This document shows, one piece after another, positions 5,271 through 64,000 of a stretch of DNA of 64,000 bases; position 1 is the first letter of the stretch, and every line of letters starts with the position of its first letter. Where the stretch lies: positions 22,555 to 86,554 of the forward strand of contig CAYVLY010000003.1 of the NCBI GenBank assembly GCA_964452565.1, read 5' to 3'. Position numbers and translations under genes: made by a program. Origin of the DNA: an uncultured Gammaproteobacteria bacterium (GTDB lineage: Bacteria; Patescibacteriota; Patescibacteriia; UBA9934). Below the pieces are notes generated by a model. That model saw only the letters and a program-made list of their open reading frames with translations. It was not told the origin of the DNA and did no database searches.

Positions 5271-5801
5271 ATGAAGCCGATTATTGACATGATTCCGGAG
5301 TTTTTGCGTCCGAATCATTTTACTATCGCGCGCATGGTGCTAACGCCAGTTGTTCTGGCTTTATTGTTTTTCGAGGTCTATGATTATGGAGTGCCACTTT
5401 TCATCATCGTAACCTTCACTGATGCTATTGATGGGTCATTGGCACGATGGCGCAGGCAGATAACAAAGTGGGGAACTTTTTATGATCCAGTAGCAGATAA
5501 ACTTTTGATTGGTTCAGTCATCTTACTTATCCTTTTGCAGCACGTAAACCCACTTCTGGGTTACATAATAATAATGCTTGAGGCATTGATGATGATAGGC
5601 GGATGGTATAAGAGACGTAAAGGAGAAAAGTGCCAGGCAAATGTGTGGGGTAAGATCAAGATGCTTTTGCAGGTATCTGGTGTGGTGTTTTTGCTTTTAG
5701 CACTTTGGCTTGGGGTAGATATGTTTGTTCCTATATCAAATGGAACATTAATTTTAGCTGTCTTGTTTGCGGTTGTAGCGCTCTTAACATACAGTTTGTG
5801 A
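5271..5801 (+). CDS. CDP-alcohol phosphatidyltransferase (PgsA-like)
   Basis: The DAIDGSLARWRRQITKWGTFYDPVADK motif (D-G-x2-A-R…G-x3-D-x3-D) is present. The ORF track start at 5028 overlaps the divergent gene, and the internal Met at 5271 fits the family N-terminus. Confidence 0.7.
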   Translation: MKPIIDMIPEFLRPNHFTIARMVLTPVVLALLFFEVYDYGVPLFIIVTFTDAIDGSLARWRRQITKWGTFYDPVADKLLIGSVILLILLQHVNPLLGYIIIMLEALMMIGGWYKRRKGEKCQANVWGKIKMLLQVSGVVFLLLALWLGVDMFVPISNGTLILAVLFAVVALLTYSL

Positions 5802-22021: not shown

Positions 22022-23131
22022 ATGGCTAGAACACAAAAAAGACAGTTTGACAGCGTCTTTTTTGGATTAGTAATTGGACTCACGATTTTTGGATTGATCA
22101 TCCTAACCTCAGCATCTGGCCCGTCTGGTTACGAAGAGTTTGGGGACAGTTATTACTTTCTTAAGCATCAGTTAATTTCGGGAATCATTCCAGGTTTAGC
22201 TGTGATGGTCGCAGCCATGTTCACGCCGTATTCCTGGTACAGAAAGATCGCGTTTCCGCTTTTGTTGGTTTCGATAGGATTATTGATTCTGGTGTTTATC
22301 CCAGGAATTGGAACTGACTTTGGGACCTTTGCAAATAGTTGGGTCGATATTAGTGGCTTTTCTTTTCAGCCTGCTGAGATAGTTAAGCTCACATTCTTAT
22401 TGTATTTGTGTGCATGGATGGCGGAACGGGCTGGAGGTAAGCTGCAGGACTTTTCAGAAGGACTAGTGCCATTCTTGATAATCATCGGAATCATTGCAGG
22501 GCTTGTGCTTTTACAGCCTGACCTTGGGACACTTTCGGTTATAGGGGCTATGGCATTCATAATATTCTTTATTGCCGGTGGATCATTAAAGCACATTTTA
22601 GGAATAGGAATAGCCTGCTTTGCTGCACTTTACGTATTGATTGCATCATCACCATATCGAGTAGAGCGTTTTACAACCTTCTTGCATCCAGAGCTTGATC
22701 CCCAAGGTGTTGGCTATCAGATTAACCAGGCTTTGTTGGCGATTGGATCTGGTGGATTGTTTGGACGGGGATATGGCCACTCTTTGCAAAAGTTTCAATA
22801 CTTACCAGAGGTTATTGGAGACTCGATTTTTGCTGTTATGGCCGAGGAGCTTGGATTCTTTCTAACTGTTGGGTTTGTAGCATTGTTTGTCGCGATGATC
22901 CTAAGGGGGTTTTGGCTTTCTGAGCGCGTGCAGGATCGGTTTGGTCGGTTTTTGATCATTGGAGTGGTGAGTTGGTTTGGTGTGCAGGCTTTTGTAAATA
23001 TCGGAGCTATGGTCGGCGTTCTGCCAATCACAGGAGTGCCTTTGCCGTTTCTAAGTTATGGAGGAACTGCAATGGTGGTATCATTAGCAGCAGCAGGTGT
23101 TGTAATGAATATTTCAAAATATGCAAAATGA
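22022..23131 (+). CDS. ftsW: Peptidoglycan glycosyltransferase FtsW/RodA (SEDS family)
   Basis: 10-TM SEDS protein placed between mraY and murG. The start is the Met after the mraY stop. Confidence 0.85.
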   Translation: MARTQKRQFDSVFFGLVIGLTIFGLIILTSASGPSGYEEFGDSYYFLKHQLISGIIPGLAVMVAAMFTPYSWYRKIAFPLLLVSIGLLILVFIPGIGTDFGTFANSWVDISGFSFQPAEIVKLTFLLYLCAWMAERAGGKLQDFSEGLVPFLIIIGIIAGLVLLQPDLGTLSVIGAMAFIIFFIAGGSLKHILGIGIACFAALYVLIASSPYRVERFTTFLHPELDPQGVGYQINQALLAIGSGGLFGRGYGHSLQKFQYLPEVIGDSIFAVMAEELGFFLTVGFVALFVAMILRGFWLSERVQDRFGRFLIIGVVSWFGVQAFVNIGAMVGVLPITGVPLPFLSYGGTAMVVSLAAAGVVMNISKYAK

Positions 23132-24194
23132 AGGAGGCGAAAAACGAATACTCATGACAGGTGGTGGGACCCTGGGTCCTGTGACGCCTCTTTTAGCTAT
23201 CGTAGAGGAGTGGCAAAGTCAGGAGGAGGTCGAGGTAAGTTGGATTGGAACGCGTAAAGGTGCGGAACGGGCTTTGGTCGAATCAATGCAGATTCCGTTT
23301 GTGTCGATTGTATCGACAAAATTCGATCGAAGCCGATGGTGGAAGTGGTGGTTGATTCCGATACAATTGCTTATCGGATGTGTACAAGCTGGAATCGAAC
23401 TTCGAAAATCACAGCCAGATATTGTGTTTACTGCAGGTGGGTATGTAAGTGTTCCGGTTCTGATCATAGCTAGACTTATGGGGATGGCTACTTGGGTTCA
23501 TCAGCTCGATATAGTTCCAGGCTTGGCAAATCGAATCATGGCACCGTTTGCACATCAGATTACAGTCACATGGCCAGACTCTCTTGAACATTTTTCACAA
23601 AAGAAGACTACAGTAGTTGGGGGTGTGATGCGTCACGCATTGTTGCACGGTGATCGTGATCAAGCCTGTGAGCGGTATGGGTTGAAAAAAGATATGCCGA
23701 TTTTGTTAGTTGTCGGCGGTGGAACTGGTGCACTATCGATAAATGAGGCAATGGAGGCTATTGGATCTGATCTTCTTGAAGATATTCAAATCGTACATCT
23801 AACCGGAAAGGGCAAGATGACTCAAAAGCTCGAAAGCATGGGTGAGGGTTATATAGCGCTTGAGTTCCTTGGAGTGGGAATGAAGGATGCTTTTGCTATG
23901 GCTGACATGGTTATTGCACGAGCCGGTATGGGAACTATCATCGAACTTTGTGCTTTGAAAAAGCCGACTATAGTGATTCCGCTTCATAACACTGACCAAC
24001 TGGCAAATGCCCGAATGATCGAGGAGCGTGGTGCTGCTGAGGTGTTATGGGAGGTGAACCCGCAGATACTTAAACAAACGATTAAGAAGCTAATGTCGAA
24101 TGATGAGCGTCGAAAGCGTCTGTCATATCGTATTAGCGCCTTATTCTCAGCCTTTGGGGCAAAGGATATTGTAAGAATGGCAAAAGATATTTGA
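23121..24194 (+). CDS. murG: Undecaprenyldiphospho-muramoylpentapeptide beta-N-acetylglucosaminyltransferase
   Basis: GT28 N-terminus (MTGGGTLGPVTPLLAI) and the C-terminal GG(G)TGALSINEA motif. The alternative start is 23154. Confidence 0.85.
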   Translation: MQNEGGEKRILMTGGGTLGPVTPLLAIVEEWQSQEEVEVSWIGTRKGAERALVESMQIPFVSIVSTKFDRSRWWKWWLIPIQLLIGCVQAGIELRKSQPDIVFTAGGYVSVPVLIIARLMGMATWVHQLDIVPGLANRIMAPFAHQITVTWPDSLEHFSQKKTTVVGGVMRHALLHGDRDQACERYGLKKDMPILLVVGGGTGALSINEAMEAIGSDLLEDIQIVHLTGKGKMTQKLESMGEGYIALEFLGVGMKDAFAMADMVIARAGMGTIIELCALKKPTIVIPLHNTDQLANARMIEERGAAEVLWEVNPQILKQTIKKLMSNDERRKRLSYRISALFSAFGAKDIVRMAKDI

Positions 24195-24201
24195 AACAAA
24201 A

Positions 24202-24230
24202 ACACCCGCTGATATCGTGCGGGTGTTTTT
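24202..24230. terminator. Bidirectional terminator acacccgc-tgatatcgt-gcgggtgt with T-runs on both sides
   Basis: It serves murG on the + strand and the convergent small gene on the - strand. Confidence 0.65.
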
Positions 24231-24232
24231 GA

Positions 24233-24412
24233 TTACTCGGCAGGTGTCTCTACTGGAGCCTCCTCTGCAGGTGCCTCTGCCGGCGCTTCTGCTGGAGCCT
24301 CAGCAGGAGTTTCCTCTGCTGGAGCAGCAGTCTCACCAGCGCAGTTTGGGCAAAGACCATCAGTCAATTGCTCATCTGCAACTTCTGAGCTGCATGCAAC
24401 ACATACTCCCAT
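24233..24412 (-). CDS. Small zinc-ribbon protein with an acidic Pro-Ala-Glu repeat tail (59 aa, below the ORF-track cutoff): MGVCVACSSEVADEQLTDGLCPNCAGETAAPAEETPAEAPAEAPAEAPAEEAPVETPAE
   Basis: Hand-translated from the - strand. It has CxxC-x13-CxxC and is flanked by terminators. The ORF-track + strand ORFs here (AGASAG repeats) are its antisense shadow. Confidence 0.45.
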   Translation of the reverse strand: MGVCVACSSEVADEQLTDGLCPNCAGETAAPAEETPAEAPAEAPAEAPAEEAPVETPAE

Positions 24413-24494
24413 ATTTGAGTCGTGTTATGAATTAGTTTGCTTATTAATAGTAACAAAAACCAGCGAGTTTGTCGCTGGTATATTGTTTTTTTAT

Positions 24495-24644
24495 CTACTC
24501 AGCAGGTGCCTCAGCTGGAGCTTCTTCTGCTGGAGCCTCAGCTGGAGTCTCCTCAGTTGTAGCTGCTTCCTCTACAGTCTCCTCAGCAGGAGCTGCTGTT
24601 GGCTCATCAGTTGCTGGAGTTGCCACTGTTGTATCTTCATCCAT
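24495..24644 (-). CDS. Small acidic PAE-repeat protein, paralogous tail (49 aa): MDEDTTVATPATDEPTAAPAEETVEEAATTEETPAEAPAEEAPAEAPAE
   Basis: Hand-translated from the - strand. An extended -10 (TGCTACAAT) lies upstream and the terminator ccagcga-gtttg-tcgctgg lies downstream. Confidence 0.4.
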   Translation of the reverse strand: MDEDTTVATPATDEPTAAPAEETVEEAATTEETPAEAPAEEAPAEAPAE

Positions 24645-24722
24645 ACGAATATATTATTAATGATTTAACTATGATCCATTGTAGCAGATTATTCTTAAAA
24701 CCTGTGGACAAACAGTGAATAC

Positions 24723-24751
24723 TTGATTTATTCAGCTAAATGTGGTATAAA
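24723..24751 (+). promoter_or_regulatory. Promoter TTGATT-17-TATAAA (with TGG extension) for tRNA-Lys
   Basis: Read directly from the sequence. It lies about 30 nt upstream of the mature tRNA 5' end. Confidence 0.4.
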
Positions 24752-24783: not shown

Positions 24784-24859
24784 GCACCGGTAGCTCAGTT
24801 GGTAGAGCGAGGGCCTTTTAAGCCCGAGGTCGCGGGTTCGAGTCCCGCCCGGTGTACCA
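24784..24859 (+). tRNA. tRNA-Lys (anticodon UUU), CCA encoded
   Basis: Manual cloverleaf: 7-bp acceptor stem with one G·U pair, D-loop with GG, anticodon loop CUUUUAA, T-loop TTCGAGT, 76 nt. Confidence 0.85.
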
Positions 24860-24889: not shown

Positions 24890-24908
24890 GCTATAATTAA
24901 GATACATT

Positions 24909-26021
24909 ATGCGGATTGCGATGATTGGACAAAAGGGAGTTGCGACTGGCGGGCGCTCAGGTGGAATTGAGGCGCACGTGCGAGAGGTTGCAAAACGATT
25001 GGCGTTCATTGGCCATGAGGTTTTTGTTTATGCCCGCGCTAAGTATGATCCTGAAAAGCCAGAGAGCTTTGAAGGTGCACGATTGGTTTTTCTGCCAACA
25101 GTCTATTCAAAACACATCGAAGCGATCCTACACACTTTAATTGCTTCGATACATGCACTGCGTAAAGATTATGACATTATTCATTATCACGGTGTTGGTC
25201 CTGCAACCTTGGCTTGGATTCCAAAGTTGTTTGCACGAAAGGCTAAGGTGATTGTAACTTTTCATTCCCAGGATCGGTTTCATAAAAAATGGGGTTGGTT
25301 TGCTCGCGTGTATCTTTTGTTTGGCGAATGGGCATCAGTGATGTTTTCACATTACTGTATTGCCGTATCTCACGAGATGCAAGTCTTCTGTCGCAGTAGA
25401 TATAAGCGAGAGGTTGTCTATATTCCAAATGGCGCCGAACTGAAAACTGTGAAGGGTCATGAGGAGCTTGAAAAGTTCGGACTTAAGCCAAAAGAGTATT
25501 TTGTAAACGTAGGACGTATTGTGCCGCAAAAAGGACTTCATTTTTTGATCGATGCATATAAAAATATCGATACTGACAAAAAAGTGGTCATTGTTGGCGC
25601 TCCGAGTTTTTCAGGAGACTACTACACAAAGATGCGTGAACTTGCAAAAGGCGATGACCGTATCCGATTTCTCGGCTTTCAAGAAGGTGAAACTCTTGAA
25701 CAGCTTTATTCAAATGCGTATGCATATGTTCATCCTTCAGAATATGAAGGCCTGCCATTGGTTATTCTCGAAGCAATGAGTTTTGGTTTAATGCCAATCG
25801 TCTCTGATATCGCACCTAATGTGGAAGCTATTCACGGCATAGGTCTTACTTTTACAACAGCAAATATGCAGGACTTACGCGACAAGCTTGAATACGCGAT
25901 AAGTCATCCAACTATTGTCCAAGATCAGGCAGAGGAAGCCCGCGCTATTATTGAAACTCATTTTAACTGGGATACAATCACAGACCATATTGAAGCTGTT
26001 TATATAACGTCGAGGCATTGA
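24909..26021 (+). CDS. Glycosyltransferase family 4
   Basis: GT4 C-terminal region (HPSEYEGLPLVILEAMSFGLMPIVSD). Length 370 aa. Confidence 0.8.
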   Translation: MRIAMIGQKGVATGGRSGGIEAHVREVAKRLAFIGHEVFVYARAKYDPEKPESFEGARLVFLPTVYSKHIEAILHTLIASIHALRKDYDIIHYHGVGPATLAWIPKLFARKAKVIVTFHSQDRFHKKWGWFARVYLLFGEWASVMFSHYCIAVSHEMQVFCRSRYKREVVYIPNGAELKTVKGHEELEKFGLKPKEYFVNVGRIVPQKGLHFLIDAYKNIDTDKKVVIVGAPSFSGDYYTKMRELAKGDDRIRFLGFQEGETLEQLYSNAYAYVHPSEYEGLPLVILEAMSFGLMPIVSDIAPNVEAIHGIGLTFTTANMQDLRDKLEYAISHPTIVQDQAEEARAIIETHFNWDTITDHIEAVYITSRH

Positions 26022-29503: not shown

Positions 29504-30961
29504 ATGGATTTACGAAAAATCGAGAATTTTCAAGATGCTGTAGTGACCGTAATGGGGCTAGGTCGATATAAGCAAGGAAGTGGTCTTGGAGCTGCAAAAT
29601 GGCTTATACGCCATGGCGCTCAGACTATCATCACAGACCTCAAAGATGAGACTGAACTTGAAGAGTCCATGGAACTTGTGATGGAGTGGTATCACAAGTA
29701 TCGTGAGATGTATCCGGATCGAACCATTTACTCACCATTATTTGTTCTTGGTGAGCATCGTAAAGAAGATTTCACTGAGGTGGACTGTGTTGTTCAAAAC
29801 CCAGGAGTACCAAGTGAGTCTGAGTTTATTGTTGCTGCAAAACAAGCAGGTGTATCAATCGAATCAGATGTGAGTCTTTTCTTCCGCTTCTCACCATATC
29901 CAATCGTTGCAGTCACAGGGACCAAGGGAAAGACCACAACAACTAAGATGATTGGTACAATGTTTGAGAACCAGGATGACCGAACAATTGTTGCAGGAAA
30001 TATCAAAGTATCGCCGCTTGAGTATCTCGATGAGCTCTTAGTGCGCGGGGAGGAAACACTGATCGTGCTTGAATTATCATCATGGATGCTTGAGAGCTTG
30101 CCAGGTGCATTTGAAGACATTGGTAAGGGACCAGATTTTGCAGTGCTAACCAATGTGTACCCAGATCACTTAAATCGATACAACTCATACGAAGATTACA
30201 TTCATTCAAAGGAGATTATCTTTTTGTCACAGGATCCAGACCAGTACACGATATTAAACTATGATCATGAGACTGTGCGTGGAATGGAATCAAAAGTTCG
30301 CGGACAGCTTTATTGGTGTTCCAGAAAATACATGGACCATAATGGATGTTTTATAAAGGACGGCATGATCGTATTCCGTAAAGAGGGTCAAGAAGAGGAG
30401 ATAGTCCCTGTTGATGAGGTGGGTCTCAAGGGCGAGCATAATATGGAAAATATCCTGACCTCAATTTGTGCTGCTCGACTTCGAGGAGTTGCATCTGATG
30501 TTGTTAAAAAGATCACAAAAGAGTTTCAGGGGGTATCAGATCGACAAGAGCTCGTACGTGAGGTTGATGAGATTACTTATATCAATGATACAACTGCGAC
30601 GCAGCCTGATGCTGTTATTGCTGCGCTAAAGCGATTTGGTGCAGATGCTGATGTGATTCTTATTGCTGGCGGAATGGATAAGGGTGTTGAGTATGATGCG
30701 CTTGCGGATCAGATTGCAGAAACCTGCAAGCACTTGGTGTTGTTTGATGGTGATGCATCGCAGATGATTTCAGAGAAAGTTGGAGATCGTGTGAAAAAGA
30801 CAGAAAAGATTTTGTCCATGAAAGATGCAGTGCAGCATGCAAAGTCTTTAGCTGCTTCAGGTGACATAGTCCTACTCTCGCCAGCGGCCGCAAGCTTTAA
30901 CATGTTTAAGAATGAGTTTGATCGTGGGGAGCAATTCCGTGAAGAGGTGCGAAATTTGTAA
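29504..30961 (+). CDS. murD: UDP-N-acetylmuramoylalanine--D-glutamate ligase
   Basis: N-terminal VTVMGLGRYKQGSG Rossmann-like motif and the AVTGTKGKTTTT P-loop. Length 485 aa. Confidence 0.85.
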   Translation: MDLRKIENFQDAVVTVMGLGRYKQGSGLGAAKWLIRHGAQTIITDLKDETELEESMELVMEWYHKYREMYPDRTIYSPLFVLGEHRKEDFTEVDCVVQNPGVPSESEFIVAAKQAGVSIESDVSLFFRFSPYPIVAVTGTKGKTTTTKMIGTMFENQDDRTIVAGNIKVSPLEYLDELLVRGEETLIVLELSSWMLESLPGAFEDIGKGPDFAVLTNVYPDHLNRYNSYEDYIHSKEIIFLSQDPDQYTILNYDHETVRGMESKVRGQLYWCSRKYMDHNGCFIKDGMIVFRKEGQEEEIVPVDEVGLKGEHNMENILTSICAARLRGVASDVVKKITKEFQGVSDRQELVREVDEITYINDTTATQPDAVIAALKRFGADADVILIAGGMDKGVEYDALADQIAETCKHLVLFDGDASQMISEKVGDRVKKTEKILSMKDAVQHAKSLAASGDIVLLSPAAASFNMFKNEFDRGEQFREEVRNL

Positions 30962-34161: not shown

Positions 34162-34221
34162 ATGTCCACAGATTTGTTTGTTCGAACCGCCATAATTGAT
34201 ACAATATACGCACAAATATAC

Positions 34222-37200
34222 ATGAGATATATAAAGACAAGATCACTTGCCTTATTCATTTGTAATGTTTCAGTCATTGCAGTATTTGTGTTTCTTGCTG
34301 GAGTTTTGTGGGTCAATAATGCTGAAGCTGCTGTTGTAACTTGGGAGGGAGATGTTGATAATAATTGGAGCACTGATGGCAACTGGGATACTGGAACGGC
34401 TCCTACTTCGATCGATGTTGCGACATTTGTGGACGCCTATGATGCAAACTGCGATATTGATGCCACGATTAATGTCAAAGGAATTGATATAAACACCGGA
34501 TACGCCGGCACAATCACGCAGCAGACAGGTTCTGATATAACAGTTGGAACTAGTGATTTTGCCCAGGATGCGGGTACATTCACAGGAAGTAGTAATGCTT
34601 CTGACGACATTACCATCAATGGTGACCTTACCGTAGGAAGTAATTTTACATCTACTAAAGGAACTTTGTATTTGGCTGGAATAGTTAATATCACAGGAAC
34701 ATTTACCCACAACAGCGGAACAGTAGAAGCTATTTTTGCTTCTGGAAGTACAGATACTGATTTTAATAATGCGGCGACTTTGTATAACTTCATTGTTAAC
34801 AAATCAAGCTGGGACGTAAATTTGAGCGGTCAGACTATCATAGTGGAAGGCACGCTAACTTTGACAGATGGAGCAGTTAACAATGGCACGATTGAGATGC
34901 AAGGAGTAACAACAACGGTTGGTACAGATGCGGGTAATGGAAATGCTGATATCGAGTTCACACAATCTGCTACCCAGACACTTACATGTAGTGCCACTTA
35001 TTTCCAATATAAGATAACCGTTAACAAAGCCGGAGGATCCTTTGACTTTGGTTCAAATATTGATACATCAACCGATGCCAGTGCAGACTTTGTACTTACA
35101 TTAGGAACAGTTAATCTTGGCAGTTATACATTAAATGTTCATGATGATATACAAATCGATGGCGGAACGTTTAATAGTAATACAGGAGATGTTATAACAG
35201 ATGATCTAAGAATTAATGCTGGTACCTTTGAAGCTCCTGACGCTAGTGGTTCCTTGGCAATTTCTGGCGTCCTTGTGGTAGATGGTACATTCACCCATAA
35301 TGACGGAACAGTTACGCTTGATGACACAACAGCTGCTGGAGATGTAGATATTTATGATGCTGTTACTTTTAAAAACCTTGTATTAAACAAAACGGGCGGC
35401 TGGGGATTGAATTTGAGAACCATAACCATCATTGTGACAGACACATTGACTGTTACAGATGGGTACATCAACAACGGTACGCTCGAGATGCAGGGAGCAA
35501 CAACAACTATTGGCGCTAATGCTGACAATGGAAATGCTGACTTTGAGTTCACACAATCAGCCACTCAGACACTTACGTGTAACGCAACTTACTTCCAATA
35601 CAAAATAATCGTTAACAAAGCCGGAGGATCCTTTGACTTTGGTTCAAATATTGATACATCAACCGATGCCAGTGCAGACTTTGTACTTACATTAGGAACA
35701 GTCAATCTTGGCGGTTATACATTGGATGTTCAAGACCTTATACAAATCGATGGCGGAACGTTTAATAGTAATACAGGAGACATTATAACTGATAATTTGA
35801 CGATTAATGGTGGTACATTTGAAGCTCCTGACGCAAGTGGTTCTTTGACTATTTCCGGAGACCTAAGAGCGACTGGTACATTTACTCACAACGATGGTAC
35901 GGTCACGTTTGATGACACAACAGCTGGCGGAGAAGTAAATATCTATAATGCTGTCACATTCAAAAACCTTGTATTAAACAAAACAAGTGGCTGGGGGTTG
36001 AATCTAAGAACCACAACAACTATTGTTACAAATACACTTACCGTGACAGATGGTTACGTCAACAACGGTACCTTGCAGCTGCAAGGGGCAACAATAACGG
36101 TTAATGCAGATGACAATGGAACTGCTGACTTTGAGTTTACAGGATCTGCTACGCAGACATTTACCTGTGGCGCAACTTACTTCCAAAACAAAATAATTGT
36201 CAACAAAGCCGGAGGATCCTTTGATTTTGGTTCAGATATTGATGTTAGTACTGATGGAAATGCAGATTTTGTGCTTACAACAGGAACAGTCAATCTTGGC
36301 AGTTATACATTAGACCTTCACGATGACTTGCAAATCGATGCCGGAACATTTAATGGTGGTTCAGGGGATATTGTAGCCAATGACGTTTTAATCAATGGTG
36401 GTACATTCGAAGCTCCAGATGCCAGTGGATCATTAACTCTTTCAAAGGTCCTCACCGCTGTTGGCACCTTTTCTCACAACAATGGGACGGTAACATTTGA
36501 TGATACAGTATCCGGTGGAGACGCGGATGTTAATCAGGCAGTTACGTTTAATAATCTCGCAGTTAACAAGCCTGGCTGGGGGCTACAGCTTAGTTCACAG
36601 ACCATTGTTGCTGAAGGGGCACTAACCATGACAGACGGTAGATTCAATAGCGGAACTGTGCAGGCGCAAGGAAATGTTACTGTTGCATCAGCCTGGGATA
36701 CTGATACAAGCACAACATTGCAGTTCACTAGCAGCAATGTGCAAAGCTTTGATTTAACAGGTGCTACAGGTGCTTTTAACGCTGATATTGTTATTAATAA
36801 GTCCGGAGGGTCTGTTCAGCTAGCCTCAGATTTGACAATGAATCAGTCAGACCAAGACCTGACTATTGTTGAAGGAACTTTTGATCTTAATGGTTACGAT
36901 CTTGATATCAACGACCAAGCAAATAGTGACTTCGATATTGAAGATGGAGGGGTACTTAGGTGGCAGGGCTCGGAAACATTGTCAGTAAATACTGGTGACC
37001 CCACGCTTGCATCTGGAAGTCAAGTTATCTATGACCCGACTTCGGGGACTGTCTCACTACAGGATTGGACATATCATCATCTAGAAGTAGTAGGTACTGG
37101 TGGTGCGGTTGTGCAGATGGGATCTACGGAAACTATAGCTGGGAATTTAACAATAACGTCAGGAATACTTGATGTAAACGGCTCTGGTCTCACGGTTAGT

Positions 37201-40200
37201 GGAACATTTAGTAATTTAGGCACATTGAGAATCCAGGGTGATGAGACATTGTCTTTAACCAATGATACTGACAGTGGAACCATTGAATTTGTAGGAGATG
37301 GAGATAGCGCAGCAGATGCTTACAACATGCTTAATTGGACCTTTAATAACCTCTCAGTTAATTTTACTGACAGCGCTGATTCAATCAATGGTCAGTATTT
37401 AACTGGCACAAACACCATGGCAAATAATCTATGGTCATATTGGAATTTGGATGATGGGTCAGGATCAACTGCAACTGACCAGTCAGCAAATACGAATAAT
37501 GGAACACTTAATAATATGGAGGAAGGGGACTGGATTACATCTGATTTAGCGCCTCTTACCTTCACAAATACCAATGGTTTAGTTTTCGATGGCGGAACTA
37601 GTAATGAATATGTTGAATTTACTAGTGATGCAGCCTTCAATGACAGATCAGTTTCACTCTGGTTCAAAACATCTGACACGTCATCCAGGCAGGTGTTATT
37701 TCAAGAGGGAGGGACATCTAATGGAATGAATATTTATATAGATGGAGGAAAAGTTTATGGTGGCTCCTGGGGGAGTGGGATAAATTCAGTATTCCTGTCC
37801 GGAAATATTAGCGCAGATACTTGGACAAATGTAATTTTAACATTTGACGATACTGGAAATCTTGAATTGTTTATAGGCAATGTAAGCCAAGGAACATCTG
37901 CAACTGGTGGATCTATGCCAGCACATACCGCACAAGATTCTTTGGCGGCAAAGCTAGGTGATACAAAGTATCACGATGGTACCAGTAATGGTAACGGTCA
38001 TTATTTCAATGGTCGCATGGACGAGGTCAGAGTTTATGAGCGCGTTGTTACTAGTGCCGAACGAATAGCACTTGCGGCAGGAAGTAATGATAGCCGTACT
38101 TCAACACCACTGAGCTCTCTAACAGTTAATAGTAATTTTACTCAGGCTGGCGGAACCTTTACTGCACCAACAGGAACAATGACGGTGAAGGGGAACTTTG
38201 CTAATACTGGTGGAACATTTACACACAACAGCGGAACAGTAGCATTGTCTGATTCAGGTGTTGCAACAACTGTCTCTGGAAACACGACATTTAACAACCT
38301 GTCAATGACGACTAATGGAGATACAATCACATTTACGCATACTACAACAACAACTGTGGCAGGTACATTTACAGTAACTGGTGCGTCAGGTCAGCAAATA
38401 ACTCTAGCTAGTTCAGACCCAGGTACCACTTGGCTTTTAAATGTTTCCGGAACAAGTTCCGTTGACTACGTACATGTTACAGATTCAGATGCAAGTGGTG
38501 GCAATGCCATCACACATGTTGATGTTGCTCATTCTACTGATAATGGGAATAATACCAACTGGGGCTTTAATGTTGCTCCAACAGTTACATCTGTTACAGC
38601 AGTTCAAGAATCAGACGGAACTGTCACAATTACATTCATCATGGATGATGGCGATGATGATAATACCCTAGAAGCCCTTGTTCAATACAATGTAGGTGGA
38701 GGGAATACAAAGGCGACTCTTAGCGAGACAGATGGAGATACTTCTGCAACATATGGAGATCCAAAAGTAGAGAATGATGATACTTATCAAGTTGGTAATG
38801 CCTCTGGATATATAACAAGTTCATCTGGAGCTAATACAGTGACGACGCAATGGAATGCATCTACAGATGAAACAGGGATAGATATTTCTACTGCAACCAT
38901 CACGGTTACTCCATACGATGGAACTGAAGCAGGAACACCATCTTCTAGTTCAAACTTTTCATTAGATCTCACGGCTCCAACAGTATCATCAGCGTCCTAC
39001 AAGGATACAAATGCAGATGGAACAGTGGATCGAGTGGATATTGTGTTTAATGAAAACGTTTCACTGGGAAGCTATAATACAGCAGACTGGTCATTCTCAG
39101 AACAAGGAACAATAACATTAGATGACTCTGGAGCGTCTGCTTCTACCGATACCATATTATTAACAGTCACGGCAGATGCTAACGAAACAGGAGGAGCAAC
39201 CGCGCCAACAGTGCTATATACAAATGCTGCGGGTAGATTAACAGATGCATACAATAATGCGGTTGCAACATTTGGAGCTGCGCAGACAGTTACTGACGCT
39301 GCTTCTCCGCGCATGAACCAGATTGGGTATAGGGATTCAGATGCAGATGGGCAGATAGATTCCGCAGTTCTAGCATTCTCAGAGACGGTAACCATTGTTT
39401 ATGACGATGGAGATTGGGTTACGGTAGCTAATGACCTGACAAACATGGACGTTTCAGCGATTGCTTCAGGAAACGGAACATCAAGTGTCACATTTACTGC
39501 AACAGCCGCAGCAGACATCACAGGGGGCTCTACACAACCAACAATTGCGTTTACTCCAACAACTGGATCTATTCAGGACTCAGCTACAAACGCTGCAACA
39601 GCATTTAGTGCAACATCATTTGTAGACGAGGCAAAGCCAGTAATCTTAACCTCAACTCCAACGGATACATCTACTGTTCAATCACGAACGAATGCTATTG
39701 TCTGGAATTTCTCAGAGGCAATGGCTACTGGTGGAGGATGGGTGCATGCCTCAGAGTTTACCTCGACCCCAAACCCAGGAGGATGGGGAACTGCTTCTTG
39801 GAGTAATAGTGATAAAACTGTAACTGTTTCACATGCTCCATTCTTATGTATTACAGATTATTCAATAGCGACAGATGATACTGTTATAGCTGCCGCTGCG
39901 GGGGAGACTGGATACACAGCATTGGATGACTCTGCTTCAGCCCCAATTGGAACAGCTTTAACCTTCACGACCATGACTTGCACAGGGACAAGCTCAAGCC
40001 AGGCGTCTCAAGTCGCAGATACAATGAGTTATCCTGTTACAGATGATATTGATGTTGCAGATGGTGCAGGAGCGGCTGATGAGGATGAATGTTCTGGCGT
40101 AGAGCCAGGGGCAAAGATTAAATTATCCTGGTCAGTGACTTCTAGTGTTGGGTTTGTGAATCTGTACTATTCAACAGATCAGGGTGAGACTTACGCCACC

Positions 40201-40998
40201 ATTGCAAGTCAAGCTACAAACTCTGGAAGTTACTCATGGATAGCGCCAGAAGGTCTTTCTGAGGCATCTGATATACAATTCAAGATTGAGGGAACTGACC
40301 TTGTTGAAATAACAAGTACTTATGAAACTGGATTAATGGATATATGTGAGGTAGAAGAAGTGGATGAAGATGACGATGCTGTCGATGATGCCGATGACAC
40401 AGCAGATGCCGCTGATGGTGAAGAAGAGGCAGAGGAGATTGTTGTACCGATTGGAATGGCGATTGAATCAGCCTTTGGTGATAAATGGACAAAGGAAGTG
40501 GCAAAAAGAGAAATAGATACGTCAGAGTTCCCAGTACAGGAAGTTGCCATTGGTTCACTTGTGAAGCTCGTAGATGATGGAGACCCAGCAACGCAGGCGG
40601 ATTCAGCAGTCTATTACGTTGGCGCCGATCAACGAAGACATCCATTCCCCAATGAATCGGTGTACAGTACATGGTTCACGACTTTTCACGGTATAAAAAC
40701 CATTGAACAGGAAACAATGTCCGCGATTCCAATGGGACCCATGGTTACTTATAGGCCAGGTTCGACCCTTGTGAAGTTCCCGTCTGTAAATAAGGTTTAT
40801 GCTATTGATGCTGACGGTTCACTGCGATGGATCGCAACAGAGGAGCTTGTAGAAGAATTGTATGGAGACGAGTGGAATAAATTTATAGTAGATATTTCAG
40901 AAGCCTTCTATTCAAGTTACGAATTTGGAACCAGCTTAAGCTCTATGGAGGACATGACCTGGGATACAGTGATGGCATTATACGCAGCGAATAAGTAG
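34222..40998 (+). CDS. Giant cell-surface protein (about 2259 aa): N-terminal signal anchor, three 198-aa tandem beta-rich repeats, LamG/concanavalin-like lectin domain, further Ig-like repeats, acidic D/E stretch
   Basis: Single uninterrupted ORF with hydrophobic N-terminus IAVFVFLAGVLWV. A LamG_3-like region starts at WSYWNLDDGSGSTATDQSANTNNGTLNN and ends at FNGRMDEVRVYERVVTSAERIALAAG. DEDDDAVDDADDTADAADGEEEAEE lies near the C-terminus. Confidence 0.8.
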   Translation: MRYIKTRSLALFICNVSVIAVFVFLAGVLWVNNAEAAVVTWEGDVDNNWSTDGNWDTGTAPTSIDVATFVDAYDANCDIDATINVKGIDINTGYAGTITQQTGSDITVGTSDFAQDAGTFTGSSNASDDITINGDLTVGSNFTSTKGTLYLAGIVNITGTFTHNSGTVEAIFASGSTDTDFNNAATLYNFIVNKSSWDVNLSGQTIIVEGTLTLTDGAVNNGTIEMQGVTTTVGTDAGNGNADIEFTQSATQTLTCSATYFQYKITVNKAGGSFDFGSNIDTSTDASADFVLTLGTVNLGSYTLNVHDDIQIDGGTFNSNTGDVITDDLRINAGTFEAPDASGSLAISGVLVVDGTFTHNDGTVTLDDTTAAGDVDIYDAVTFKNLVLNKTGGWGLNLRTITIIVTDTLTVTDGYINNGTLEMQGATTTIGANADNGNADFEFTQSATQTLTCNATYFQYKIIVNKAGGSFDFGSNIDTSTDASADFVLTLGTVNLGGYTLDVQDLIQIDGGTFNSNTGDIITDNLTINGGTFEAPDASGSLTISGDLRATGTFTHNDGTVTFDDTTAGGEVNIYNAVTFKNLVLNKTSGWGLNLRTTTTIVTNTLTVTDGYVNNGTLQLQGATITVNADDNGTADFEFTGSATQTFTCGATYFQNKIIVNKAGGSFDFGSDIDVSTDGNADFVLTTGTVNLGSYTLDLHDDLQIDAGTFNGGSGDIVANDVLINGGTFEAPDASGSLTLSKVLTAVGTFSHNNGTVTFDDTVSGGDADVNQAVTFNNLAVNKPGWGLQLSSQTIVAEGALTMTDGRFNSGTVQAQGNVTVASAWDTDTSTTLQFTSSNVQSFDLTGATGAFNADIVINKSGGSVQLASDLTMNQSDQDLTIVEGTFDLNGYDLDINDQANSDFDIEDGGVLRWQGSETLSVNTGDPTLASGSQVIYDPTSGTVSLQDWTYHHLEVVGTGGAVVQMGSTETIAGNLTITSGILDVNGSGLTVSGTFSNLGTLRIQGDETLSLTNDTDSGTIEFVGDGDSAADAYNMLNWTFNNLSVNFTDSADSINGQYLTGTNTMANNLWSYWNLDDGSGSTATDQSANTNNGTLNNMEEGDWITSDLAPLTFTNTNGLVFDGGTSNEYVEFTSDAAFNDRSVSLWFKTSDTSSRQVLFQEGGTSNGMNIYIDGGKVYGGSWGSGINSVFLSGNISADTWTNVILTFDDTGNLELFIGNVSQGTSATGGSMPAHTAQDSLAAKLGDTKYHDGTSNGNGHYFNGRMDEVRVYERVVTSAERIALAAGSNDSRTSTPLSSLTVNSNFTQAGGTFTAPTGTMTVKGNFANTGGTFTHNSGTVALSDSGVATTVSGNTTFNNLSMTTNGDTITFTHTTTTTVAGTFTVTGASGQQITLASSDPGTTWLLNVSGTSSVDYVHVTDSDASGGNAITHVDVAHSTDNGNNTNWGFNVAPTVTSVTAVQESDGTVTITFIMDDGDDDNTLEALVQYNVGGGNTKATLSETDGDTSATYGDPKVENDDTYQVGNASGYITSSSGANTVTTQWNASTDETGIDISTATITVTPYDGTEAGTPSSSSNFSLDLTAPTVSSASYKDTNADGTVDRVDIVFNENVSLGSYNTADWSFSEQGTITLDDSGASASTDTILLTVTADANETGGATAPTVLYTNAAGRLTDAYNNAVATFGAAQTVTDAASPRMNQIGYRDSDADGQIDSAVLAFSETVTIVYDDGDWVTVANDLTNMDVSAIASGNGTSSVTFTATAAADITGGSTQPTIAFTPTTGSIQDSATNAATAFSATSFVDEAKPVILTSTPTDTSTVQSRTNAIVWNFSEAMATGGGWVHASEFTSTPNPGGWGTASWSNSDKTVTVSHAPFLCITDYSIATDDTVIAAAAGETGYTALDDSASAPIGTALTFTTMTCTGTSSSQASQVADTMSYPVTDDIDVADGAGAADEDECSGVEPGAKIKLSWSVTSSVGFVNLYYSTDQGETYATIASQATNSGSYSWIAPEGLSEASDIQFKIEGTDLVEITSTYETGLMDICEVEEVDEDDDAVDDADDTADAADGEEEAEEIVVPIGMAIESAFGDKWTKEVAKREIDTSEFPVQEVAIGSLVKLVDDGDPATQADSAVYYVGADQRRHPFPNESVYSTWFTTFHGIKTIEQETMSAIPMGPMVTYRPGSTLVKFPSVNKVYAIDADGSLRWIATEELVEELYGDEWNKFIVDISEAFYSSYEFGTSLSSMEDMTWDTVMALYAANK
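34850..36450 (+). repeat. Three tandem intragenic repeats of about 594 nt (198 aa); copies 1 and 2 are near-identical at the DNA level
   Basis: For example, 35016-35110 and 35610-35704 are identical except for single bases. A third, more diverged copy begins near 36201. Confidence 0.7.
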
Positions 40999-63186: not shown

Positions 63187-63292
63187 TGTTAATTTTTTAA
63201 GCTTGCGCGGGATCCCCCTGCGTCAAGTGGGCTTTGCCCAAAAGGCCCCTTTACAACGTTTTTGAAGGCAGGAAGCTTTCAATGAAGGGAAC

Positions 63293-64000
<708 letters not shown>

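Follow-up and report, generated by a model that had tools for sequence, protein, structure and literature searches.

Two small acidic genes between murG and tRNA-Lys

We analysed a 64,000-nucleotide (nt) stretch of contig CAYVLY010000003.1 (assembly GCA_964452565.1), referred to here as the window and numbered from its first letter, in which two very small minus-strand genes lie between murG and a tRNA-Lys(UUU) gene. The zinc-ribbon gene, which we call ZR, occupies 24233–24412, starts with ATG, and encodes a 59-amino acid (aa) protein (MGVCVACSSEVADEQLTDGLCPNCAGETAAPAEETPAEAPAEAPAEAPAEEAPVETPAE) with a ribbon followed by an acidic tail of PAE repeats. The zinc-ribbon domain (MGVCVACSSEVADEQLTDGLCPNCAG) corresponds to codons 1–26 (24335–24412) and was delimited by invariant residues and an AlphaFold2 (AF2) model. 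The remaining codons, 27–59 (24236–24334), encode a predicted disordered acidic tail of the type (PAEA)n that has no K, R, or H, as delineated by Tandem Repeats Finder and AF2. The second gene, ORF-B (ORF, open reading frame), occupies 24495–24644 on the same strand, likewise starts with ATG, and encodes a 49-aa protein (MDEDTTVATPATDEPTAAPAEETVEEAATTEETPAEAPAEEAPAEAPAE) that is acidic, free of cysteine, and in effect tail only, with the N-terminus MDEDTT. Both tails have a 12-nt (four-codon) period, with 4.0 copies at 24262–24309 and 4.2 copies at 24498–24551 (Tandem Repeats Finder). K, R, and H are absent from both full-length proteins, which accordingly have no tryptic sites, and no other ATG-initiated ORF of 25–150 aa, in any frame of the window, combines a D+E content of 20% or more with two or fewer K, R, or H residues.

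The plus-strand gene murG (23121–24194; GT28 domains in a Pfam scan) converges on ZR, and tRNA-Lys(UUU) lies on the plus strand at 24784–24859 (ARAGORN; Rfam score of 71.8 bits). The window carries a cluster of the division and cell wall (dcw) type, which comprises mraY, ftsW, murG, a glycosyltransferase family 4 (GT4) gene, a P-type ATPase gene, murD, a Mur ligase gene, and DivIC-like and rotamase ORFs.

The initial annotation had pointed to the 59- and 49-aa frames between murG and tRNA-Lys and to their absence from the ORF track. Both are indeed there, and the omission is an effect of length: the two genes fall below the 60-aa default threshold of the track, while antisense ORFs of 61–72 aa pass it. 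Plus-strand ORFs of 63, 61, and 72 aa overlie the small genes, and they stay open because the reverse complement of GCN, GAR, and CCN codons contains no stops. Chance ORFs are frequent in this region, with 30 ORFs of at least 25 aa in the 2 kb around the small genes. The case for ZR and ORF-B as genes therefore rests on comparison with relatives rather than on the ORFs themselves. What does exceed chance is their acidic composition, unique in the window, and their conservation in relatives.

A conserved zinc ribbon with a variable acidic tail

We searched for ZR homologues in libraries of 5.8 billion clusters at 90% identity and 1.84 billion representatives at 50% identity, with word-indexed and exhaustive profile searches. 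Low-complexity words dominated when the full-length protein was the query (two matches among 8000 candidates); a 40-aa profile and an exhaustive 32-column profile succeeded. About 20 distinct small ZR-type proteins were recovered, all of them from Uhrbacteria/Patescibacteria; below, loci of relatives carry L numbers and individual proteins P numbers. Members start with MG[VI]C..C, continue with the pattern ..D[DE]x[LM]x[DE]..CxxC, and end in an acidic tail. In the window protein the cysteines are residues 4, 7, 21, and 24, which form CxxC-x13-CxxC, and all four are invariant in the approximately 20 members. Among nine members, the residues M1, G2, V3, C4, C7, D13, C21, P22, N23, C24, and G26 do not vary. 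AF2 modeling with the family alignment gave a predicted local distance difference test (pLDDT) score of 93–94 for residues 1–20, above 90 for residues 1–26, and 52–58 for the tail, a profile that fits a minimal zinc ribbon with a disordered region after it. The N-terminal CxxC-x13-CxxC ribbon proposed by the initial annotation is thus borne out by both the family and the model. The ribbon domain is itself acidic, and the window protein contains no aromatic residue.

The nucleotide sequences carry the signature of a protein-coding gene. Across codons 1–27 of seven distinct loci, third positions vary in 25 of the 27 codons and first or second positions in only 9–10; the cysteine codons alternate between TGT and TGC, and the ATG is invariant. 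Pairwise ratios of nonsynonymous to synonymous substitution rates (dN/dS) for these loci are 0.05–0.28. Pooled over the ribbon domain, the corresponding ratio of differences (pN/pS) is 0.26 in the sense frame, which has no stops, and ranges from 0.43 to 3.6 in the other five frames, four of which contain stops. In Logan SRR8146440, an independent assembly of this organism, the minus strand likewise carries gene calls for both, with identical products.

An alternative is that the locus holds simple-repeat DNA or a small RNA, or that the plus-strand ORFs are the real genes. It can draw on the 12-nt low-complexity repeats that keep all antisense frames open, on the abundance of short ORFs by chance, and on the one stop-free antisense frame across the ribbon, which has a pN/pS of 0.43. 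We regard it as exceedingly improbable, since the sense frame has the lowest pN/pS of the six, the cysteine and start codons are kept, and promoters and terminators are oriented along the minus strand in all loci. The 63-aa plus-strand ORF (24469–24660, 'AGASAG') begins with a TTG inside a terminator hairpin, and its counterpart in L002 lies in a different frame. The same arguments and the frame test mark the 72-aa plus-strand ORF over ZR (24217–24435) as an artefact, and an Rfam scan at a permissive threshold reported the tRNA only. The initial annotation had already assigned coding to the minus strand and dismissed the plus-strand ORFs as antisense by-products, and the comparison upholds this assignment. 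It had also named two observations that would speak against the genes, namely a lack of frame conservation in relatives and repeat-number changes that break the frame. What we found is that frames are conserved and that tails range from 19 to 75 residues in relatives, with length changes always in frame. Both minus-strand ORFs are thus very probably genuine protein-coding genes of a genome of Candidatus Uhrbacteria, a lineage of the candidate phyla radiation (CPR). The nearest relatives of the window MurG among 185,579 reference genomes are in two Candidatus Uhrbacteria metagenome-assembled genomes (87% and 78% identity). In an exact-sequence look-up, both small proteins were absent from a collection of 15 billion proteins, yet they are called on a Logan contig that carries an identical MurG.

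The tails differ in kind as well as in length. Relatives have PAE, PVE, D/E-rich, or G/D/S-rich tails, which amount to at least three unrelated flavours, and members contain 9–23 D+E and 0–3 K+R residues. What is conserved in the ZR tail is its charge and disorder, not its sequence or length. With high confidence, then, the 59-aa product can be placed in a very small family, restricted to this lineage, with a fixed 26-residue four-cysteine (C4) ribbon (MGVCxxC-x13-CPxC) and a disordered acidic tail. We found no paper linking Uhrbacteria to small proteins and no description of the ZR family in the literature.

Two recovered proteins, P0019 and P0022, were rejected as ZR members, as they are generic multi-zinc-finger proteins. 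A sub-motif of the ribbon, C..C..[FV]P.D.[LM]..G.CP.C, occurs twice in P0021 (118 aa; basic N-terminus and acidic C-terminus) and three times at the C-terminus of P0019 (688 aa, kinase-like). The ribbon may be a wider, undescribed module, judging from the recurrence of this motif.

ORF-B and the exchange of tails

ORF-B homologues of 38–62 aa are present in L002/L023, L014/L022, L015, L026/L027, L029, and L031/L032, three of which are also represented by the proteins P0010–P0012. Common to them are the N-terminus M(D)EDT(T), an acidic body rich in P, A, V, T, and E, and the absence of cysteine. An in-frame deletion of 11 codons distinguishes the L014 homologue. Coding is supported by the conserved N-terminus, by such in-frame length variants, and by dN/dS values of 0.08–0.40 from protein-guided alignments. 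The AF2 model of ORF-B has no secondary structure and a predicted template modeling (pTM) score of 0.14. We are confident that ORF-B represents a second, distinct conserved family that is essentially the ZR tail alone. The initial annotation had called the 49-aa protein a paralogue of ZR without the ribbon. This holds for the tails, which are similar in the window and exchanged in relatives, and fails for the protein as a whole, which belongs to a separate family with its own MDEDTT N-terminus.

The two window tails are 80% identical over 54 nt and 93.5% identical over the 31 nt that encode the stretch EETPAEAPAE. An ORF-B-like gene of L026 and the ZR gene of L017 share 98.7% identity over 78 nt, including the 3' end, the stop codon, and the terminator, and therefore either a ZR domain acquired an ORF-B tail or the reverse took place. 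By these identities, tails have been exchanged between ZR and ORF-B genes. The order of the genes differs among loci: ORF-B precedes ZR in the window and in L031/L032, ZR precedes ORF-B and faces murG in L026/L027 and L029, and in L002/L023 the tRNA is followed by ORF-B and, farther on, ZR. ZR genes with a long PAE/PVE tail mostly occur without a separate ORF-B (L001, L003, L006, L017, and L020), and ZR genes with another type of tail mostly occur with one (L002, L026, L029, and L031). L009, L012, and the window itself are exceptions. Read as 'Rosetta-stone' evidence, this split-versus-fused distribution argues that ribbon and tail would work in one process.

In L015, a gene for a third kind of acidic miniprotein (1917–2045) separates tRNA-Lys from the ORF-B homologue and has its own TTGACA/TACAAT promoter. 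The protein is 42 aa long, with 60% D+E and no cysteine. Its C-terminus is ...GDDDEF, and the last five residues (DDDEF) resemble the acidic tip of SSB.

Each gene has its own promoter and terminator

An extended -10 box, TGnTAC(A/T)AT, lies 33–35 nt upstream of the ATG in every locus. In the window, the box of ZR (TGTTACTAT) is at 24447–24455, minus strand, 34 nt upstream of the ATG, and that of ORF-B (TGCTACAAT) is at 24678–24686, minus strand, 33 nt upstream. Next to the box is an AT-rich leader in which a TAATTCAT-like motif occurs; that of the window ZR gene contains TAATTCATAACAC. In L001 and L006, the region ahead of the ZR gene contains TGTTACAAT and TTAATTCATTAACAC, with which the -10 box and leader of the window ZR gene align. 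The ORF-B box is kept ahead of the ORF-B gene in L002 and L014, and in L001 and L006 it is kept ahead of ZR.

Every locus also has an intrinsic terminator hairpin just past the stop codon of both genes. The hairpin at 24197–24231, found as an inverted repeat, is a bidirectional terminator common to murG on the plus strand and ZR on the minus strand. It has a 13-bp stem with a T-run after each side and folding energies of -20.4 kcal/mol (z = -6.75) on the minus strand and -21.4 kcal/mol (z = -4.97) on the plus strand. Between the two small genes, a terminator scan placed the minus-strand ORF-B terminator at 24459–24479; it is a GC-rich hairpin of 8 bp with a folding energy of -15.6 kcal/mol (z = -6.6 versus shuffled controls). 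ZR and ORF-B are each monocistronic, independent transcription units as predicted from these signals, in agreement with the separate -10 box and terminator that the initial annotation had noted for each gene.

Neither ZR nor ORF-B has a Shine-Dalgarno sequence. Their absence is normal here and uninformative, because the genome hardly uses them; just five of the 45 long ORFs of the window have one. Many first genes have a TATAAT 6–12 nt before the ATG, such as the one at 24892–24897, 11 nt before the GT4 start codon at 24909, and others at 29504, 41610, and 47939. Rare Shine-Dalgarno sequences together with such close TATAAT boxes suggest that leaderless or near-leaderless mRNAs may be widespread in this organism.

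The module is a fixed resident beside tRNA-Lys

Wherever a locus has enough flanking sequence, including the distant L025 and L029, the module adjoins tRNA-Lys(UUU), while other neighbours and the orientation change. It is divergent from the tRNA in the window, L001, L003, L006, L009, L012, L015, L016, and L029, and points in the same direction in L002, L020, and L025. L031 is the only locus in which the tRNA (11–86) and the module are separated, by two transposase genes (DDE_3 and rve; 212–2225). ZR is present in every relative examined, and ORF-B alone is variably present. We conclude that the module belongs permanently to this site, next to tRNA-Lys(UUU) at the murG/GT4 edge of the dcw cluster, and is not an insertion. 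The initial annotation had proposed that conservation of the pair next to tRNA-Lys be checked in related genomes, and it is ZR that adjoins the tRNA throughout.

Its further suggestion, that the position is an insertion hot spot and the proteins are phage-related, finds no support in these comparisons. Mobile or phage-derived cargo, such as an anti-restriction DNA mimic, would account for the adjacent tRNA gene, an acidic composition like that of Ocr- and ArdA-type mimics, and the patchy distribution of ORF-B. It would also fit traces of rearrangement at tRNA-Lys, namely the 178-nt repeats in L009, the duplicated tRNA 3' end in L025, and the insertion sequence transposases in L031. Set against this, ZR occupies the same position in every relative examined and sits mostly on the 5' (promoter) side of the tRNA rather than on the 3' side used for integration. 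The 23-nt 3' end of tRNA-Lys occurs only once in the window, even when up to three mismatches are allowed, and no integrase is encoded among the window neighbours. We found no relative in 2.9 million viral contigs, and the window proteins and their relatives had no PHROG match better than E 0.02 and no PADLOC match. Such an origin is very improbable.

Two of the rearrangements have a distinct layout. In L009, a 178-nt tandem repeat (5380–5796; 2.3 copies, 97%–99% identical) lies directly downstream of tRNA-Lys, and its unit opens with the last approximately 18 nt of the tRNA and the tRNA terminator hairpin, a layout that recalls the 178-bp repeats of the Escherichia coli tyrT operon. In L025, a second copy of the tRNA-Lys(UUU) 3' end plus its following sequence (620–660) lies approximately 160 nt downstream (781–817), between a tRNA pair (CUU and UUU) and the ZR gene; the duplication looks like an att-type scar.

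Most loci lie inside the dcw cluster, and the module could accordingly be read as a dcw accessory factor whose ribbon would bind MurG, the adjacent GT4, FtsW, or FtsZ and whose tail would modulate assembly or membrane association. In most genomes with enough flank the order is mraY-ftsW-murG ... ZR - GT4 - murD - mur ligase - DivIC - ftsE/X, and ZR either converges with murG or immediately precedes GT4. We consider this role unlikely. ZR always forms a separate transcription unit, set off from GT4 by a terminator, and the flanking genes change (a metallophosphoesterase in L001, GIY-YIG in L006, and DUF1653 in L025) so that only tRNA-Lys stays. Synteny within this single clade may also be inherited rather than selected.

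A DnaA-box-like element in the shared promoter region

The region between ORF-B and the tRNA contains the divergent tRNA-Lys promoter (24723–24751, plus strand), which we recognised by inspection as TTGATT, a 17-nt spacer, and TATAAA with an upstream TG; the block is kept in L001 and L006. The ORF-B promoter is closely preceded by the minus-strand motif TTGTCCACA (24711–24703), which conforms to TTRTCCACA, resembles a DnaA box, and is separated by 11 nt from the -35 box of the tRNA promoter. The motif has no other exact occurrence in the window. At the corresponding site, TTRTCCACA is the sole match or is present as an inverted pair in L001, L002, L006, L009–L014, L016, L021–L023, and L031 (for example at 5860 in L001, 4766 in L006, 5931 in L009, 5908 in L012, 5637/5660 in L002, and 2240 in L031). 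Its orientation varies among lineages, and the inverted pair is found in L002-type loci. L012 is an exception in that it has three further copies at 34–132, outside the promoter region. The motif is absent in L003–5, L015, L017–20, L024, and L029. The window is not enriched in one-mismatch copies of TTATCCACA (13 versus 17.7 expected), and the only perfect copy, at 63991, is within the coding region of a high-G+C gene. On the strength of its resemblance to a DnaA box, TTRTCCACA is a lead toward replication- or growth-coupled control, not a result.

Relationship to known zinc-ribbon and acidic-tail proteins

Scans against Pfam, NCBIfam, PHROGs, and PADLOC returned only sub-threshold matches to generic zinc ribbons (HVO_2753_ZBP, Spt4, DZR_2, and DUF1272). 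Searches of the PDB by sequence profile (best E 1.2) and with the AF2 model in Foldseek (best E 5.7) were not usable, because the folded part has only approximately 26 residues. The best Pfam match of the window ZR protein is HVO_2753_ZBP (E 0.011; 15.9 bits versus a cut-off of 33.2 bits; the model NF041909 scored 13.5 bits versus 80). The archaeal one-domain zinc-finger micro-proteins of the HVO_2753 type (PF07754) are similar to ZR in size (approximately 59 aa) and in their C(P)xC knuckles, but they have four CPxCG motifs, two zinc pockets, and no acidic tail, whereas ZR has two knuckles only. Spt4/RpoE'' (PF06093) weakly matches the ribbon part of seven of nine members. The best score is 19.9 bits (P0003) versus a cut-off of 25 bits, the matches span only profile positions 3–28 of 77, and the window protein is unmatched at E ≤ 1. 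One ZR member carries the Joint Genome Institute (JGI) label 'RNA polymerase subunit RPABC4 / Spt4'. The C-terminal half of Spt4 that binds Spt5/NusG is absent from ZR, which has an acidic disordered tail instead and no predicted strand beyond residue 27, and Spt4 itself is archaeal and eukaryotic.

The closest described architecture to the ZR family, by analogy, is that of Ruc (Rv0991c) from Mycobacterium tuberculosis. Ruc has an N-terminal four-cysteine zinc ribbon of approximately 50 aa and a C-terminal region that is disordered, hydrophilic, and variable in sequence and length (7–61 aa), and this region is required for its oxidation-activated chaperone (holdase) activity (PMC7448276). If ZR were a redox-switched holdase of this kind, its cysteines would hold zinc at rest, oxidation would release the zinc and create disulfide-linked multimers, and the disordered tail would keep unfolding proteins soluble. 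Both proteins have a conserved N-terminal C4 ribbon followed by a freely varying hydrophilic disordered C-terminus. There is no detectable sequence relationship between ZR and the Ruc/FmdB group: PF09723 (Zn_ribbon_8) was matched by one of nine members, at E 0.33, and the window protein matched neither PF09723 at E ≤ 1 (Pfam) nor TIGR02605 at E ≤ 10 (NCBIfam). The ZR ribbon is also about half the size, has a cysteine spacing of x13 rather than x17, and starts at residue 4 without a preceding hairpin. The ZR tail is uniformly polyanionic, without Lys or Arg, and Ruc has no equivalent of the tail-only gene with which ZR exchanges tails. Chaperone or proteostasis genes, whose linkage had pointed to the function of Ruc, were not found in approximately 12 distinct ZR contexts, where the neighbours are dcw genes, tRNA-Lys, GT4, and the P-type ATPase. 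A Ruc-like activity of ZR is accordingly doubtful.

Several other candidates were rejected. A rubredoxin-like iron protein does not fit the spacing of 13 rather than approximately 29 residues or the lack of an aromatic residue, and a rubrerythrin-like domain reached only E 0.19. Rigid DNA mimics such as Ocr and ArdA do not correspond to the ZR and ORF-B tails, which are predicted to be disordered and have no PHROG or PADLOC counterpart; as flexible polyanions, the tails may still mimic charge. A tag of the Pup/UBact type is at odds with C-termini that vary (..TPAE, ..APAA, ..SDEE, ..GDAM, and ..APTV) and with neighbourhoods that contain no PafA, Dop, or proteasome gene. A precursor of ribosomally synthesized and post-translationally modified peptides (RiPPs) and an antitoxin were discarded as well, as their defining motifs or partner genes are absent.

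Acidic tails tethered to a docking module compete with nucleic acids in several well-known proteins, including the C-terminal domain of the delta subunit (RpoE) of Bacillus subtilis RNA polymerase, region 1.1 of sigma70, the acidic tip of Hfq, and eukaryotic DSS1. They combine a folded or docking module with a disordered polyanionic segment free of K and R, in which charge matters over sequence, and ZR shows the corresponding pattern of conservation. Their docking modules are HARE-HTH, sigma, and Sm domains and not a 26-residue zinc ribbon, so the resemblance is one of mode of action and not of membership. YacG of E. coli, a DNA gyrase inhibitor that occupies the nucleic-acid-binding site, has approximately 65 aa, a single C4 zinc finger, and an acidic flexible C-terminus. 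Its knuckle pattern differs from that of ZR, its conserved Trp-containing tail motif is absent from ZR, and the Pfam and NCBIfam scans gave no match to it.

A ribbon-docked polyanion as a possible mode of action

Because strict conservation of the ribbon contrasts with conservation of composition only in the tail, and because known acidic tails work in this way, we propose that ZR may act as a tethered polyanion. The ribbon would dock on one specific, hypothetical partner, which could be RNA polymerase, a nucleoid protein, or a ribosome-associated protein. The tail would then either shield a basic surface that binds nucleic acid or compete with nucleic acid for it, and the ORF-B protein would supply the same polyanion untethered. 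This mechanism is tentative and by itself less likely than not to be correct, though likelier than the Ruc-like and dcw readings. For the explanation as a whole, that is, two real genes of the identity described above together with this mode of action, we estimate a probability of roughly 0.4, and it is the best explanation we have.

Several points weigh against it. The docking partner is hypothetical, and the acidic surface of the ribbon gives no clue to the target. Zinc as the metal, rather than iron or none, is an inference from motif and AF2 model. Since the homologues are confined to a single narrow clade, common descent rather than function may explain the conserved neighbourhood. Protein-guided alignment and low complexity bias the dN/dS values of ORF-B (0.08–0.40) downward. 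The PAE tails have no hydrophobic or aromatic 'tip' motif of the type that most characterised acidic tails use for specific contacts. Nucleic-acid mimicry, a chaperone-type role, and an entropic-bristle role fit the evidence alike.

A bolder form of the tethered-polyanion proposal, which we consider a long shot, is that Uhrbacteria have a dedicated 'polyanion module' whose expression would be tied to replication or growth through TTRTCCACA in the promoter region shared with tRNA-Lys. Ribbon-anchored and free polyanion would be interchangeable as split or fused genes and would act as a delta- or DSS1-like nucleic-acid mimic. In organisms from which the usual regulators are missing, this mimic would tune RNA polymerase, nucleoid proteins, or the division machinery. 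The module would then represent a new, CPR-specific class of small-protein regulators.

Other features of the window

Two further genes of the window stand out. An ORF of 2278 aa (34162–40998, plus strand) directly follows the dcw-type genes. The gene at 63284–64000, which runs off the end of the window, has a much higher G+C content than the rest and is compositionally foreign. Its product has Asp/Cys-rich repeats (..CDDxDxxxxPGAxExCDGxDNDCDG..) behind a lipoprotein-like N-terminus.

Significance

CPR genomes are tiny and full of unannotated small genes, very few of which have comparative support. Here, two genes of less than 60 aa are shown to be real at a site where length-thresholded ORF tracks put antisense artefacts in their place. 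They define two linked, uncharacterised families of miniproteins, one joining a minimal zinc ribbon to a polyanionic tail that can be exchanged and the other consisting of the tail alone, and the module falls within the known theme of small zinc-ribbon proteins with a disordered tail. If the tethered-polyanion idea is false, what stays is a clean correction of the annotation and a defined family for future screens. If it is true, these proteins would be among the smallest known bacterial regulators of the nucleic-acid-mimic or chaperone type, and they would offer an easy system for the study of charge-only disordered tails, with proteins small enough for chemical synthesis.

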